NCBI GenBank assembly: GCA_964426185.1
Contig: CAYRPF010000072.1
Coordinates: 1 to 16,696 of the forward strand
Reading direction: 5' to 3'
Source of the DNA: an uncultured archaeon
GTDB lineage: Archaea > Asgardarchaeota > Lokiarchaeia > Sigyniarchaeales > Promethearchaeaceae
Length of the DNA stretch: 16,696 bases
Positions 9,728 through 16,671 of this stretch are shown piece after piece; positions within the stretch are counted from its first letter, which is position 1, and every line of letters starts with the position of its first letter. The position numbers were made by a program, and so were the translations under genes. The notes under the pieces were generated by a model that saw nothing but the letters and a program-made list of their open reading frames with translations, was not told where the DNA came from and ran no database searches.

Positions 9728-11374
9728 TTACATCATTCCAGGAGGCATACCACCCATTCCTCCCATTCCGCCTGGAGGACCGCCTGCGCTGGCCTTAGCT
9801 TTGATCATATCATCGATCCGTAGGATCATTACAGATAATTCTGTGGCGGATTTGATGATTTGATCAATATTTGCCACTGGTTCGATGACTCCAGATTCTT
9901 TATTGTTTACAACCTTGTTTTGATAGATGTCCAAACCCATAAATGCATTACCTGGTTTGGAATGGGCTGTACGAAGTTCAGCAACAATATTAATTGGGTC
10001 TAAACCAGCATTTTCAGCTAAGGTGATTGGAATGATTTCCATAGCTCGAGCAAAAGTCTCAATGGCTATTTGTTCTTTACCAGATTGTTTGGCTGCAAAA
10101 TTGATTAAACGTTGAGAAAGTTCCATTTCTACAGCTCCACCACCGCCAACAATCTCAGCCCGGTCATAAGTTGTAGCAACCACACATAATGCATCGTGCA
10201 AAGTACGTCCGGCTTCTTCTAAAGCGCTGTTCACACCCGCACGGAGCAAAATTGAAATTGCTTTGGGATTTTCGCATCCTGAAATAAAACACAAGTCATC
10301 GCCTGCAACTTTTTTGAATTCAACATGCTTTGCTTTACCTAAATCAGCCGCAGTGATTGATTCTATATTTTCAACGATTTTTCCGCCTACAGCTTTTCGT
10401 AATTTCTCCAAATCACTCTTGGTTACCGATTTAATGGCTACAATGCCGTATTTATTCAAGAAATGAGACGCAGTATCTTCAATTCCCTTTTGGTTAATAA
10501 CCACATTGGCGCCGGCTTCTTTTAGTTTATCGGCAAAGTGGCGCAAAATCTGCTCTTCTTGGTCTAAAAAGGATTGAATGTCATTTGGATCGGAAATTCG
10601 CAAATCGCTGGAAAACTCTGTCTTTTTAATCTCAAATGCTTGATTAATCAAGGCAATTTTTGCATCCGTGATATTTCTGGGCATCATTTGATGGGTAGGC
10701 TCTTTTTCTAAAATTACTCCTTCGATTATTTGTGATTCTTTTATTGAACGACCTTTTTTCTTAACCACCATGATATCCTTGACTCTGGCCATGTTATTGG
10801 TTCCAGATTCAGAACGGATTTTGCTGAAGGCTTCTACCGCTAATTCTGCAAAGAAGTCCTTATTGCCGCTGATTCCCTTGGAATTCATAGTTGTAATTGC
10901 TACTTTCTTGAGAATGTCCTTGTCGTTATCAGGATCGATTTTTTCCGCAATGGATTTTAAAATTTCACGGGCTTTCTTACCCGCTTGATTAAATCCTCGT
11001 GCAATAATACTCGGATGGATACCTTGAGACATTAATTCATTAGCAACTGTGAGTAAATGACCCGCAATAATCACACTACTAGTAGTACCGTCTCCGACGT
11101 TATCGTCTTGAGTTTTAGAAATTGATACTGCCATTTTAGCCCCTGGATGTTGAACATCAAGGTTGTCTAAAATTGTGGCACCATCATTGGTTACAGTTAT
11201 ATCACCTAATGAATCAACCAACATCTTGTCCATTCCACGAGGACCTAGAGTTGATTTAACAGCTTCAGCTACTGCTTGAATGGCAAAAATATTTTTTTCC
11301 CGAGCATCTTGACCTTTCGAGCGCTCGGTACCTTCCTTAAGCAATAATATTGGTACACCGCCTAATTGTGACAT
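9728..11374 (-). CDS. ths: Thermosome subunit (group II chaperonin, TCP-1/CCT family)
   Basis: [59 protein letters not shown], and a GGM-rich C-tail. SD-like GAGGT upstream. Confidence 0.98.
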
Positions 11375-11541
11375 TGTTTTTACCTCTTGTGTTTAATTTT
11401 GGTTCTTTCTCCATTTTTAATTATGGGATTAAGTAGAACAATACTTAAGGAAGTCTAAGTCACCAAAAATTAAAAATGCTTCGCTTATTTACAGTCGATT
11501 TTAAGTGTGTGGGCGAGTTACTTATTTTATTCCTTCTTAAA

Positions 11542-11593
11542 GGTGGAAAAAAAGGTTAAATAGGGTGGAAAAAAAGGTTAAATAGGGTGGAAA
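11542..11593 (+). repeat. 22-bp tandem repeat (GGTGGAAAAAAAGGTTAAATAG x2 plus partial GGTGGAAA) containing a BRE/TATA-like element upstream of yggS
   Basis: Identical copies at 11542-11563 and 11564-11585, partial copy at 11586-11593. Confidence 0.95.
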
Positions 11594-11598
11594 TTGCA

Positions 11599-12255
11599 AT
11601 GTCTCTTAAAAATTGGGATGAAATGATCCGAAATAATCTTGCTCAAATTAAAATTCCAAAAAGTGTCACATTAGTGGCAGTGTCAAAACGAAAACCGGTG
11701 AAATCAATCCGTGTTGCGTATAAATATGGTGTGCGTGATTTTGGTGAGAATTACCTGCAAGATGCCATTCCTAAAATTCAAGCTTTACAAGATTTACCCG
11801 ATATTAGGTGGCACTATATAGGGCACATCCAATCGAACAAGATTAAAGAGATTGTCAAGTATTTTGATATGGTTCAGTCAGTAGATCGGAAAAAAGTGCT
11901 CCTTAAAATGCAAAATACCTGTGAAATGCAAGAAAAGACACTTCCTATCTTGATACAAATTAATATTGGAAAAGAACCACAGAAAAGTGGGATATTTCCT
12001 GAAAATTTGGCTGAATTTCTGCAAGAGTGTGAACATTATTCTCGACTTAAAGTTCAAGGCTTGATGGGCATTCCCCCCGTAAATTGTGATCCAAGACCAT
12101 ATTTTGAAGAGATGCATAAATTATTTCAGCAATATAAAACTGAATTTGGGTTAACAACTTTAAGTATGGGTATGAGCCATGATTATCAGTTAGCCGTGGA
12201 AAGCGGTGCTACCATGGTAAGGATTGGGACTTCGATTTTCGGCCCTCGTGATTAA
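11599..12255 (+). CDS. yggS: Pyridoxal phosphate homeostasis protein (YggS/PLPBP/PROSC family)
   Basis: LVAVSK (PLP lysine), FGENYLQD, WHYIGHIQSNK, QINIGKEPQKSG, GLMGIP, LSMGMSHDY, GATMVRIGTSIFG. ATG 11599 preferred over GTG 11587, which lies inside the repeat. Confidence 0.97.
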   Translation: MSLKNWDEMIRNNLAQIKIPKSVTLVAVSKRKPVKSIRVAYKYGVRDFGENYLQDAIPKIQALQDLPDIRWHYIGHIQSNKIKEIVKYFDMVQSVDRKKVLLKMQNTCEMQEKTLPILIQINIGKEPQKSGIFPENLAEFLQECEHYSRLKVQGLMGIPPVNCDPRPYFEEMHKLFQQYKTEFGLTTLSMGMSHDYQLAVESGATMVRIGTSIFGPRD

Positions 12256-12325
12256 AAATAAAAAAAACGCCAAAGTGTTAAAAAGTTGAAAAACGATTGT
12301 TAATGTAAATGTAAAGGTGTTTATA

Positions 12326-13792
12326 ATGGTTGATCCAGAAAAAAAGAATGAACAAAAAAAAATATTGGAAGAGATTAAGAAAGGTCCAGCACTGCAGAAA
12401 GTCGATGAAAGAGAAATTCAAGAATTACAAGCTCAGCGTTCAGAACGCATGAAGGAAATTGATCAGTTGAAAGAATTATATCAAAATGCACAATCTATAA
12501 TCCAAGAAATACATAAATCTACAGCAAATTTGGCTCCAATTCCAAAAAATGAAAAACAAGAATATGAAGAAGCCAAAGAGAGACGTCTTAGATCAATAAA
12601 TAAACTAAGAGAAACGATAGAACTCAGCAAGAAACTGATTCAAGAGATCCAAAATAAAACTTCTCTTCAAGTTATTAGCGAAAAAGAACGCGAAGAACAC
12701 GAACGAATCAAAGCACAACGTTTATCTATGATTCGAGCTGCCAATAAGCATCTTCTTAATTTTTCTTCAGTCCTAGATGAACTATCTGAAAATCCAATGA
12801 GTGTTCTAACACCCGTCAATCGCAGTGAGTTAGAAGATTATCAAGCGAAAAAAGCAAAACGATTGAAAGAATTGACCATTGCAGAGCGTCAACTTCAAAA
12901 TTTTGCAACTATATTAGAAGAGATCTCAGTTAATCCACCACAATTGCAACAAATCGATGAAACTGAGCAACAAGAACTTGAACAACAACGTCAAGAAAGA
13001 TTACAAAAAACGGCAAACCTTAAATCTCGAATAGAAATGGCCGAACACTTACTTGATGATATTGTATCAACATTGAAATTATCTCCAGATCAAAAAGAGG
13101 AATTCTGGAAAGAATTAATCGAAAAATTCGAGGTTGCTTCTTCTTATTTAAACAGGTTAGATCCAGAAAAAGTAAGTAAACTTAAAGAAATCACCGGATT
13201 GAAGCAAAAAATTGAAAAAATTCCTGGTTTATTTCAAGAAATTAAGCAGCAAAAACTGAACCCTCCAGATCCTGAAGAAAGAGAAGCTTATGAAAAAGCA
13301 AAAGCATCTCGATTGAAATCAATTCAAGAATTAAAGGGAAAAATAATTGCGAAATTCGATGTCAGCAATGAGTTACTTAAAGAAATTCAATCGACACCCA
13401 AATTACAAAGTATTCCTCTCCAAGATATTCGATCATATGAACTTGATAAAATGAAACGTCAAAATGATATCATTCAGTTGAAAAGTCATTTAACTGTTTT
13501 AGATGAGCTGATAAGTAAAGTAAAAGAAGGTTTGAAATTAACGGAAATTAATCCCAATGAAATTCAAAAATACCAAAAGGAAAAAGAGAAACGACTTAAG
13601 GATTTAGCTGCGTTTCAATATAAATTGGACGTTTTAGGTGAATTAATGGAGATATCTGAAAATAACACTTTACTATCTCAGATAGATCAAGATCAACAAC
13701 AAGAATACCTAAATCGAAAAGAAGAAAGAATGGAAGAAATCAAAAAAATGAAGGAACAACTGCGCAAGATGAAATTGCCTGTAGATGAATAA
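12326..13792 (+). CDS. Tandem-repeat helical protein, about 10 units of ~45-47 aa, each starting with a WH2/beta-thymosin-like motif
   Basis: Consensus [IL][ILF]xEI-x4-6-Lxx[IVP]-x3-E-x2-E[YL]-x3-[KR]xxR[LM]xx[IL]. The first five units start at ORF-track residues 16, 61, 107, 152 and 199. ATG 12326 is preceded by AAGGTG. The CDS and the repeats are secure; the WH2 call is a hypothesis. Confidence 0.8.
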   Translation: MVDPEKKNEQKKILEEIKKGPALQKVDEREIQELQAQRSERMKEIDQLKELYQNAQSIIQEIHKSTANLAPIPKNEKQEYEEAKERRLRSINKLRETIELSKKLIQEIQNKTSLQVISEKEREEHERIKAQRLSMIRAANKHLLNFSSVLDELSENPMSVLTPVNRSELEDYQAKKAKRLKELTIAERQLQNFATILEEISVNPPQLQQIDETEQQELEQQRQERLQKTANLKSRIEMAEHLLDDIVSTLKLSPDQKEEFWKELIEKFEVASSYLNRLDPEKVSKLKEITGLKQKIEKIPGLFQEIKQQKLNPPDPEEREAYEKAKASRLKSIQELKGKIIAKFDVSNELLKEIQSTPKLQSIPLQDIRSYELDKMKRQNDIIQLKSHLTVLDELISKVKEGLKLTEINPNEIQKYQKEKEKRLKDLAAFQYKLDVLGELMEISENNTLLSQIDQDQQQEYLNRKEERMEEIKKMKEQLRKMKLPVDE

Positions 13793-13806: not shown

Positions 13807-15198
13807 TTATATGATATTACCGCGCTCCATATTTCGTCCCACATCAAGAATCATATCCACTTTTTCAGGTTTGATGGGGGGGCCTTCTTTTATCTGTATA
13901 TTATCTTTCACTTTGCGACCAAAGGTTATAAATCCATAATTGGGTAAAATTTGAGAGTATGTGATGCCTTTAGCCAAATCTACTTTTATTTCACGCTTAA
14001 TGATTTCAGAAGTAGAAAGATCATAAAAATTAGCTTTGTGAAGAGTTAGATGAAATTGTTTTGCATGTTCAAGATCTGAATGGATTCCGCAAAATACACC
14101 CCCATTTCTCAATATACCGATTGATTTTGAGAATAAGGGTTCCGAAAAACAATTATCTAAGCAAATTATGTCGAATTCTGATGTGTCTTGATTCTCAGCC
14201 ACCTCGGAAAAATCTTCCATATCTTCATTATTTGAGATATCTTGAAAAGTTATATTATTGGTGTTCTGAAACCAAAGGGTCAAAATTTGTTGTAATTGAG
14301 ATCTATCCTTAGTAAGTATCAAAATTTTACGATCGAGGGTAAATTGCGCATAAATGAATAAGTTTCCCAGATTCTCTGGAGAATAAAGGTCATCAAAGCC
14401 AATTTCTTGCAGTTTTTTATCAACTGAAGAAAAAGCCCCATAAGTCATATATCCAGTATGTCCAACCATTCGTCCCAAGGGTCGAGTTGCATTTTGCTTG
14501 ACTTGATAGAATCTCTTCATTAATTCGAATGTTTTATACCACTGAAATTGGTTTTGAATTAATGCATTGATATTTTTCTTAACTTGTTCCAAAGTTGGGC
14601 TGAAAAGGCAAATTCGACCCTTTACAGGATCTAAATATTTCTTAACACGTGGAACAGCTAGCCAAGGAGTTGCTAGATCCAACATGATAAAATTGATATT
14701 TTCAAAGTTATAATCTTTTTCAAGTATATTTCCCAAATCTACTGTAGTATGCTCTTTCATACCCATATGTTCAATATTTTTCTTTGCCTGTTTTAAGGCG
14801 GATTCGCGGATATCAAAACTATAAATATGCCCGTCTGGTTGAGAAAAATTGGCTAAAATACCAGTTACTGTTCCACTTCCAGTTCCTGCTTCGAGAATTT
14901 GAGAGTTAGGTCTCGCATTACCATAAATTAAGATCGATCCAATATCTTCAGGATAAATTATCTGACTTTGTCTTTTCATATGAAAAATAAAATCACTTAG
15001 TAGTGGTCTTAAAATTGCCACTTTTCTATGATAAGGTGAAAGTAGAAAGGTTTGACCAGGATGTTTTCCTATTACATCTTTAAAGTCAATAAATCCTTTA
15101 TCACTGTGAAATTGTTGTGTGGGATTAGCAGTTCTGATCCATTTTCTATGATGATCAAGAATTAGGTAAATTCTTTCCCCCGCGCGAATTGGTTGCAT
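13807..15198 (-). CDS. trmI: tRNA (adenine-57/58-N1)-methyltransferase TrmI/Trm61-like, with a C-terminal degenerate duplicate MTase domain
   Basis: FHSDKGFI N-domain, MKRQSQIIYPEDIG, ILEAGTGSG, YSFDIRE, LDLATPW, FSPTLEQV, TRPLGRMVGHTGY. Likely start ATG 15198 (MQPIRAGERI); the upstream in-frame extension to 15306 does not look like TrmI. Confidence 0.92.
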   Translation of the reverse strand: MQPIRAGERIYLILDHHRKWIRTANPTQQFHSDKGFIDFKDVIGKHPGQTFLLSPYHRKVAILRPLLSDFIFHMKRQSQIIYPEDIGSILIYGNARPNSQILEAGTGSGTVTGILANFSQPDGHIYSFDIRESALKQAKKNIEHMGMKEHTTVDLGNILEKDYNFENINFIMLDLATPWLAVPRVKKYLDPVKGRICLFSPTLEQVKKNINALIQNQFQWYKTFELMKRFYQVKQNATRPLGRMVGHTGYMTYGAFSSVDKKLQEIGFDDLYSPENLGNLFIYAQFTLDRKILILTKDRSQLQQILTLWFQNTNNITFQDISNNEDMEDFSEVAENQDTSEFDIICLDNCFSEPLFSKSIGILRNGGVFCGIHSDLEHAKQFHLTLHKANFYDLSTSEIIKREIKVDLAKGITYSQILPNYGFITFGRKVKDNIQIKEGPPIKPEKVDMILDVGRNMERGNII

Positions 15199-15396
15199 TG
15201 TTATTTCAAATGGTTGAAAGGCAAAAAATTTTTGTAATAATATTAGAGCTGGCAGAGAATCCGTAAAGTTAATAATTAATCCAAACCTTTCGGAAGATGA
15301 TCTCATCTTGAATTTTTTTACTTAAATTTATCAGATGAGAGCCATTTGATGATAGAAAAAAATATCGTTTGACGATATATTTTGGGTGCCTAGTAA

Positions 15397-16671
15397 ATGT
15401 ATAATCAAAATGAACCGGAAGATGAAGTCCCTCAGCCCGAAGAAGAGAAATCTTCAGAAGAAAATGAAACTGAGATTGAGGACTCATCTGATGATGAAGA
15501 AATTGCCGAAATAGATCCTGAAAAGGATGCCGAACTACAAGAATCACTAGATCGTGAAGCGGAAAGCTTGTTGGCTGAAGAAGACGAAGATGAAATAGAA
15601 GAAGAAGAAATAGAAGAAGAAGAAATAGTAGAAGAAGAAATAGTAGAAGAAGAATCAGAAAAAGAAGCCAGCCAAGACTCATCCAAAGAAGAAACCAAAT
15701 CTGAATCTACTGAGGAAAAAAAATCAAAAGGAAAAAAGCGTCGGCGGAAACAAAAACAACCAAAAATTGATTTGAACAAAAATCCTAAAATTAAACGGAT
15801 AGTTCAAGAATCTGAACGGCTTGAAGATGCTAATGAACTTAAAGAATTACGTGATGCGCATAACGATGGTACACGTGACTTAATTAACAAAATCAAGAAA
15901 ATTCAAATTGAAATTTCTAATGTCCGGAATCAAGCTTTAGATTATCGCATGAAACGTGATCAATTAAATAAACAAGTTCAAGAAATTAAAGCTAAAAAAA
16001 CAAAATTGGTTGAGTTCTTAAATGATTCTCGCTCTGCTTTGAAGAAAGCTAAAAGTGATGCAAAACAGAGCCCAGAAGGTCAAAATTCACGAAAAGTTGG
16101 TGCCCAAATCGGAAAAATCCGTCGGAAAATTGAATTTTTAGAAAAACAAATTGAAACAGAAGATTTGGATATTCATAAAGAGAACGAGATTGTAGATGAA
16201 ATTGATAAACTTGAGCGAACTTTGCAGGAACTTATGAAAGAAAATCGTAAGCCCAAACAATTCAAAGAAGAAATTGACAATATTCGCAAATATCGTAAAG
16301 AACTCGCAGAAATTAATGATGAACTTCGCAAATCCGCGGAAGAATCCCAGAATTATCATTTATTATATTTAGATTGTAGTAAGGAAATTGATGAACTTAG
16401 ACGTGAAAAGCGCAATTTACAACGAGAATTGAATGAAAATCGTTACATTGCAGATATTTATCATCAGCGCTTAATTGAAGTATCCCAACGCTTAAATAGA
16501 AGAAAACGCCTTACTCAAAAAGCTCAATACCAAAATAAGAAGAAGATAAAAAAGGAAATTCAGCGCTTAACTTTAGAAGATGCAAAAGACAAGCTAAAGA
16601 AAGGTGCAAAATTGAATATATTTGAAGCACGCGCCTTTTTGGAAGAAAAGGCAAATAAAGCAGAAAAATAA
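15397..16671 (+). CDS. Archaeal coiled-coil protein (COG1340-like) with long acidic N-terminal extension
   Basis: KRDQLNKQVQEIK, IRRKIEFLEKQIETEDLDIHKENEIVDEI, AEESQNYH, ADIYHQ and C-terminal AKDKLKKGAKLNIFE fit the COG1340 pattern. The first ~105 aa are strongly E/D-rich. Confidence 0.8.
   Translation: MYNQNEPEDEVPQPEEEKSSEENETEIEDSSDDEEIAEIDPEKDAELQESLDREAESLLAEEDEDEIEEEEIEEEEIVEEEIVEEESEKEASQDSSKEETKSESTEEKKSKGKKRRRKQKQPKIDLNKNPKIKRIVQESERLEDANELKELRDAHNDGTRDLINKIKKIQIEISNVRNQALDYRMKRDQLNKQVQEIKAKKTKLVEFLNDSRSALKKAKSDAKQSPEGQNSRKVGAQIGKIRRKIEFLEKQIETEDLDIHKENEIVDEIDKLERTLQELMKENRKPKQFKEEIDNIRKYRKELAEINDELRKSAEESQNYHLLYLDCSKEIDELRREKRNLQRELNENRYIADIYHQRLIEVSQRLNRRKRLTQKAQYQNKKKIKKEIQRLTLEDAKDKLKKGAKLNIFEARAFLEEKANKAEK
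15592..15651 (+). repeat. Intragenic 15-bp tandem repeat x4 encoding EI[E/V]EE
   Basis: GAAATAGAAGAAGAA x2 followed by GAAATAGTAGAAGAA x2. Confidence 0.9.

Follow-up and report, generated by a model that had tools for sequence, protein, structure and literature searches.

A ten-unit repeat protein from a Lokiarchaeon is a candidate actin regulator with WH2- and thymosin-like units

We analysed a 16,696-nucleotide stretch of DNA (the window) that encodes a repeat protein of 488 residues, and we propose this protein as a good candidate, still unproven, for a kind of archaeal actin regulator that has not been described. We think it probable (about 0.65) that the regular units each hold a single actin as WH2 domains and thymosins do, with a conserved second helix adding contacts further along the monomer. 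Its ortholog in Lokiarchaeum ossiferum is expressed and is enriched with Lokiactin. The host belongs to Ca. Harpocratesius (Lokiarchaeia) and is congeneric with Ca. Harpocratesius repetitus FW102. The initial annotation had guessed at an Asgard archaeon with actin, profilin and gelsolin, and the genome does encode Lokiactin, a two-domain gelsolin, and a profilin-like protein. Compared to muscle actin, the host's actin is conserved around the acidic pair of subdomain 1 and the cleft helix.

The protein has nine clear units of 44–48 residues and one degenerate unit (Table 1). Each unit starts with a WH2/β-thymosin-like head, which is an amphipathic helix, a linker, and the motif Leu-x-x-Ile/Val, and continues as a long helix. 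The heads begin at residues 13, 58, 104, 149, 196, 242, 302, 350, 395, and 439, with spacings of 45, 46, 45, 47, 46, 60, 48, 45, and 44; the 60-residue step spans unit 6. All ten heads quoted in the initial annotation, which had described about 10 repeats of about 45–47 amino acids, are present, and the repeat is genuine. In leave-one-unit-out profiles made from this protein alone, nine units score 24.5–41.7 bits, and none of 500 shuffles reach their scores (the shuffle maximum is 12.8 bits). Unit 6 had been called degenerate, with an insertion, and it is indeed marginal: it scores 5.5 bits, which is equalled in 4 of the 500 shuffles. The conserved central insert beside it might possibly be a hinge, a dimer site, or a site for a second partner. 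A relaxed head pattern, chained five times at a spacing of 43–49 residues, selects just one of the genome's 2,422 open frames, which is this gene, and a pooled profile finds ten stretches in this protein and one other carrier in the genome. Unit 1 is the most WH2-like and is also the closest to the stand-alone proteins described below. In the alignment, the orthologs use the same start methionine. A scan for bacterial promoters and terminators gave results at chance level.

The helix after the motif is patterned too. An Asp/Ser cap is followed by Glu at +4, Tyr/His at +8, Lys/Arg at +12, and Arg at +15 (Arg in 90 of 98 units). Further on, hydrophobic residues form a stripe at +16, 19, 22, 26, 32/33, and 36. 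The conserved post-motif positions all lie on one face of the helix. This face could bind actin or, in its second half, could form the seam of a short coiled coil.

Table 1. Locations of features. Positions are in the window unless another record is named.
Feature	Position	Strand	Remark
Ribosome-binding-site-like word AAGGTG (from sequence)	12314..12319	+	6 nt 5' of ATG
Gene (open reading frame) for the ten-unit, 488-aa protein	12326..13792	+	seven full-length orthologs, 34–56% identity
Unit 1 head	12362..12403	+	helix, 5-residue linker with Gly, Leu-Gln-Lys-Val
Inter-motif helix (example), unit 1 to unit 2, 36 residues	12404..12511	+	hydrophobic stripe enters next head
Unit 2 head	12497..12541	+	40.1 bits
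Unit 3 head	12635..12676	+	25.5 bits; Leu-Lys-Lys-Val/Ile here in four orthologs
Unit 4 head	12770..12817	+	24.5 bits; longer linker
Unit 5 head	12911..12955	+	L. ossiferum counterpart has a weak Pfam WH2 match (E = 0.3)
Degenerate unit 6 and conserved central insert	13049..13225	+	Phe268, Ala271, and Tyr274 invariant
Unit 7 head	13229..13267	+	27.1 bits; 4-residue linker
Unit 8 head	13373..13414	+	26.9 bits
Unit 9 head	13508..13549	+	30.9 bits
Unit 10 head, then terminal helix	13640..13684	+	26.6 bits
Thermosome subunit and PLP-binding (YggS-type) gene	9728-12255
TrmI-type tRNA methyltransferase	13807-15306	-	long C-terminal extension
Protein with acidic N-terminus and long coiled coil	15397-16671	+	similarly placed L. 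ossiferum gene is DUF7121
Host's own 55-residue stand-alone copy	G000:C17:14873-15040 = L066:1874-2038	+	β-thymosin spacing
Profilin-like domain, then four, two, or one units and a common C-terminal domain	L135:3001-4164 (P0076); P0067; L074:1017-1790; L075:1301-2053
Unit on Rab-like GTPases with ribbon-helix-helix domain, and on LRR, small ribbon-helix-helix-like, and coiled-coil + Pro-rich proteins	L076:1289-2239, L077:863-1933, L073:661-1710, L078, L079, L081, L071, L072
GTP cyclohydrolase I of L. ossiferum (GNAMCCOK_04250)	L033:9242-9784
Weak Pfam WH2 matches in other Asgard families	L138-L140, L143, L146, L148; L142, L144, L147, L151

We scored the heads against a published definition of the WH2 motif (PMC3298513). 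The head helix has the two large hydrophobic residues, the two small, polar, or acidic residues, and the Ile/Leu of that definition: of 80 units pooled, about 90% are hydrophobic at positions 1, 2, and 5, and 60 have Glu at position 4. The linker in the nine regular units has 4–7 residues, as compared to 4–5 (and up to 10) in WH2. Leu begins the motif in all 72 units considered and Ile/Val closes it in 68, but the two basic residues in between are often replaced, with Lys at position 2 in 18 of the 72 and Lys/Arg at position 3 in 28. The strict motif, Leu-[KR]-[KR]-[VTA], is found in none of the ten units of this protein; one unit each in two orthologs fits the strict pattern, and among 48 stand-alone proteins, 10 carry the four-residue motif. 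According to the initial annotation, unit 1 alone retains a basic residue in the motif. This is correct for this protein but does not hold for the family: the L. ossiferum ortholog has Lys in 8 of 9 motifs. Asgard one- and two-domain gelsolins contain a central four-residue WH2-like motif, which in a Loki two-domain gelsolin (2DGel) has no basic residues (LVDV) and contacts actin through calcium (PMC9433394), so lysine-poor motifs are compatible with actin binding.

Profile searches gave weak similarities to both WH2 domains and thymosins. When the unit profile was compared to 177,635 PDB sequences, N-WASP and Spire WH2 constructs ranked first, second, and fourth (E = 0.011, 0.032, and 0.31; these scores are weak and are summed over tandem constructs), while the unrelated EF-1β ranked third (E = 0.071). 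With a profile of the tandem units alone, N-WASP ranked second (E = 0.52). For the subfamily that includes the host's stand-alone copy, the top PDB match was a thymosin β4 hybrid (E = 0.03). This stand-alone paralog subfamily aligns without gaps to thymosin β4 in 4PL8, and its motif Leu lies eight residues after the helix Ile, as in thymosins (5–8 residues in the ten-unit protein); its best named look-alike in the ESM Atlas is also a thymosin (0.87, which we take as a lead only). The Pfam models for WH2 (PF02205) and thymosin (PF01290) do not match the ten-unit protein, and the thymosin model matches neither the units nor the stand-alone proteins at E up to 10. One stand-alone member of the family passes the Pfam WH2 cut-off (23.7 bits; the gathering score is 23.1 bits). 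When 301 Asgard genomes were scanned with the Pfam WH2 model, the units were not detected and nothing scored above the cut-off; weak matches (E = 0.005–0.05, below the cut-off) were to proteins of 740 and 315 residues from two other Asgard families. Overall, the proposed WH2/thymosin identity survives as a likeness, with weak top matches in the PDB, but the unit fails formal membership in either family.

The link to actin that the initial annotation proposed is supported by a published Lokiactin co-immunoprecipitation from L. ossiferum (bioRxiv 10.1101/2025.11.30.690169, Suppl. Table 2; later PMC13716822). This experiment concerns a 38%-identical ortholog rather than the host's own protein. 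We identified GNAMCCOK_04085 (56.41 kDa) as the ortholog because its mass matches that of the protein encoded in CP104013.1 (monoisotopic mass 56.414 kDa) and because 8–9 neighbouring tags and masses agree in gene order. It was enriched 23-fold (log2 ratio 4.53, adjusted p = 0.002), with 44 peptides, 70.5% coverage, and 366 spectra. By ratio it ranks fourth among 569 valid proteins (a number that we derived from the p-value adjustment), above actin (4.44) and above all five gelsolins (3.97–2.08). There is about one molecule of it per 60 actins (by iBAQ), which is similar to 2DGel1. The ortholog co-purifies with Lokiactin, which demonstrates association only: the cells were fixed with formaldehyde, the washes were mild, and many proteins were enriched. 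As a control, a neighbouring coiled-coil protein (DUF7121) with equal Glu + Lys content and equal abundance was enriched by only 0.70. We also considered that the antibody might recognize the ortholog itself. However, the ortholog has no likeness to either published peptide (the paper does not state which antibody was used). GTP cyclohydrolase I (GNAMCCOK_04250), which ranks above the ortholog, contains a six-residue stretch that is like the antibody peptide ab2, and on this sequence similarity its enrichment is probably due to cross-reaction. Neither the bioRxiv version nor the later version of the paper mentions the ortholog. Also strongly enriched, and not discussed by the authors, are GNAMCCOK_02751, 02268, 02871, 05159, 02875, and 00333.

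The full ten-unit protein is found in 8 of 154 genomes from the host's order. These come from the genera Harpocratesius, Lokiarchaeum, and Promethearchaeum and include those of the cultured L. ossiferum and Promethearchaeum syntrophicum. The number of units is fixed among the orthologs, which have 478–497 amino acids. A single unit is far more widespread: 143 out of 153 genomes from this order had a match, and the 246 other Asgard genomes searched had none. It is mostly a stand-alone protein of 49–59 residues, and a profile comparison indicates that the stand-alone and tandem units are homologous (probability 96%, E = 3e-9). The initial annotation had proposed to check that homologs are confined to actin-encoding Asgard genomes; in our searches they are, and specifically to Lokiarchaeia. 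Among 1.84 billion proteins searched, 76 matched, and the named ones with heads are from Promethearchaeota. Repeats of about 21 residues in bacterial sensor kinases also match (E = 6e-6 to 9e-4), but we rejected these as homologs because they lack the head and match the charged helix only. A word-seeded search with the full protein, whose seeds were of low complexity, found nothing. Two or four copies of the unit are fused to profilin-like domains (with E = 2.5e-4 to 8.5e-3 for profilin, which misses the Pfam cut-off), in a layout reminiscent of eukaryotic elongation factors, and other copies are fused to Rab-like, LRR, or ribbon-helix-helix domains.

Could the repeat have nothing to do with actin? 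It might be a Lokiarchaeial helical repeat, either a self-associating coil or an adaptor, with a convergent WH2-like head and with an enrichment that was indirect or caught by the antibody. The failure of the strict WH2 pattern and of Pfam would fit this explanation, as would the fusions to non-cytoskeletal domains, the presence of false positives in the top tier of the co-immunoprecipitation, and the conservation of the stand-alone unit, which is highest in the second helix and not in the head. Furthermore, the stand-alone protein GNAMCCOK_02436 (matched by mass) was expressed and was not significantly enriched (log2 ratio 0.57, adjusted p = 0.105). However, this explanation requires two independent coincidences: a prediction made from the motif, and a rank of fourth out of 569 in an actin pull-down by a protein with no epitope likeness. 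It also seems inconsistent with the fusions to profilin-like domains and with two subfamilies that separately recall WH2 and thymosin. We consider it unlikely.

AlphaFold2 predicts 36-residue helices separated by 9-residue loops, with no defined arrangement or packing between the helices. The model of the whole chain (8 sequences) has confident helices and a pTM of 0.17; a two-unit piece (47 sequences) has a pLDDT of 89 and a pTM of 0.38. In the model, the final two to three turns of each long helix make up the WH2-like helix, and the loop contains the Leu-x-x-Ile/Val motif. A compact self-packing solenoid, which the initial annotation had named as evidence against its own proposal, was not predicted, and neither was a hairpin, with either 8 or 47 sequences; these are single-chain models, and a dimer is still compatible with them. 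Searches of the ESM Atlas, Foldseek, and Pfam with the ten-unit protein gave no usable match.

Another explanation for the enrichment, which we think quite unlikely, is that the protein binds along the side of the filament, like tropomyosin or nebulin. It would then be a segmented and possibly dimeric coiled coil along one long-pitch strand, with one 45-residue unit per subunit, and it would stabilize or measure about ten subunits. Any direct binder would be enriched with actin. Also, a 36-residue helix is about 54 Å long (at 1.5 Å per residue), and the long-pitch repeat of actin is 55 Å. The constant number of units and the constant total length of the orthologs would suit a ruler, and the hydrophobic stripe continues along the helix with a 3–4 spacing; if this heptad-spaced stripe were buried in a coiled coil, as it could be, that would count against our proposal. 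However, charged residues (Lys, Arg) occupy the stripe's first half, which would make a poor coiled-coil core, the heads follow the WH2/thymosin spacing, and the near-universal presence of a one-unit version in the order speaks more for a monomer binder than for a ruler. An unbroken two-chain heptad helix of the tropomyosin type does not fit, as the model has a loop, often with Pro or Gly, every 45 residues.

If each unit does grip a monomer, then the protein would be a soluble multivalent actin binder that arose by tandem duplication of a 45-residue module that is also encoded singly, and it would hold up to nine actins like beads on a jointed rod. A helix bound in the actin cleft is in competition with the filament's D-loop contact (PMC5173319), and for this reason we tentatively favour the holding and handing over of monomers, either as a local store or for delivery to filament ends. 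Nucleation is the next most likely activity, and a rather doubtful one. The initial annotation suggested that the helical spacers line monomers up along a filament strand, and this hypothesis stays alive because the length of the helix is so close to the long-pitch repeat. In its boldest form, the protein would be a stiff-jointed template for nine or ten monomers at approximately the long-pitch spacing, it would be the first nucleator or length ruler known from archaea, and the unit would have a common origin with eukaryotic WH2 and β-thymosin; we consider this combination improbable. Since the unit is found in just one order, convergence on the actin cleft is as plausible as shared ancestry with the eukaryotic motif.

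[quoted passage not shown] The unit shares with them an amphipathic helix (two hydrophobic residues, two that are polar or acidic, and Ile); a linker, often with Gly three residues after the Ile; and the Leu and closing Val/Ile. It differs in that its head is predicted to be the end of a 36-residue helix, whereas WH2 is a short helix in a disordered chain, and in having a conserved second helix directly after the motif. We know of no precedent for a rigid 36-residue continuation of the WH2 helix. β-thymosins (such as thymosin β4 and ciboulot) do have a second helix after an LKKT-like motif, and they too exist as both stand-alone proteins and tandem repeats; they sequester monomers, and their C-terminal helix caps the pointed end. 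But the unit lacks their extended Pro-containing segment after the motif, and its period is 45 residues. The period of the ciboulot repeat is about 38 residues. Like Spire, Cordon-bleu, and VopL/VopF, the protein has several heads per chain, and constructs of Spire (DDD) and N-WASP were the top PDB matches; tandem nucleators have at least three WH2-type heads, and this protein has nine that resemble WH2 without being strict members. However, its nine to ten units compare with three or four in those nucleators, it has no other recognisable domain, and its spacers are conserved helices, predicted to be stiff, instead of short flexible linkers.

Published work describes profilins and gelsolins as the main means of actin control in Asgard archaea (PMC13716822), and in arcadin-2 an archaeal helix uses the same actin cleft (PMC5173319). 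We propose the same partner for the repeat protein, which has neither a gelsolin nor a profilin fold and which repeats a full unit of helix plus motif. In the openly accessible literature, WH2 in Asgard archaea appears only as the four-residue motif inside two-domain gelsolins, and no Asgard monomer binder or nucleator of the WH2 type is named. This architecture has probably not been described before, and its mode of action is probably like that of WH2/thymosin repeats. If binding is confirmed, it would be a third class of actin regulator in Asgard archaea, encoded and expressed by cultured species that crawl with actin-filled protrusions. Two questions would also become directly testable: in what way these cells, which lack formins, store or nucleate actin, and whether the WH2/thymosin design is older than eukaryotes.

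The neighbours of the repeat gene are a thermosome subunit and a PLP-binding protein on one side, and a TrmI-type methyltransferase and a coiled-coil protein on the other. The thermosome and PLP-binding genes are also beside the repeat gene in H. repetitus and L. ossiferum; the orientation of the thermosome gene varies between genera, and it is absent from the stretch that was read in Promethearchaeum. Because the thermosome, the PLP-binding protein, and TrmI are housekeeping proteins and the neighbourhood is different in Promethearchaeum, we gave it no weight as evidence. As for the stand-alone units, the 50-residue gene lies between an N-acetyltransferase and pelota in the order's largest family; in the host's relatives it lies beside a ZPR1-like gene and 2-oxoacid oxidoreductase genes (both are among loci L013-L018 and L036-L065).
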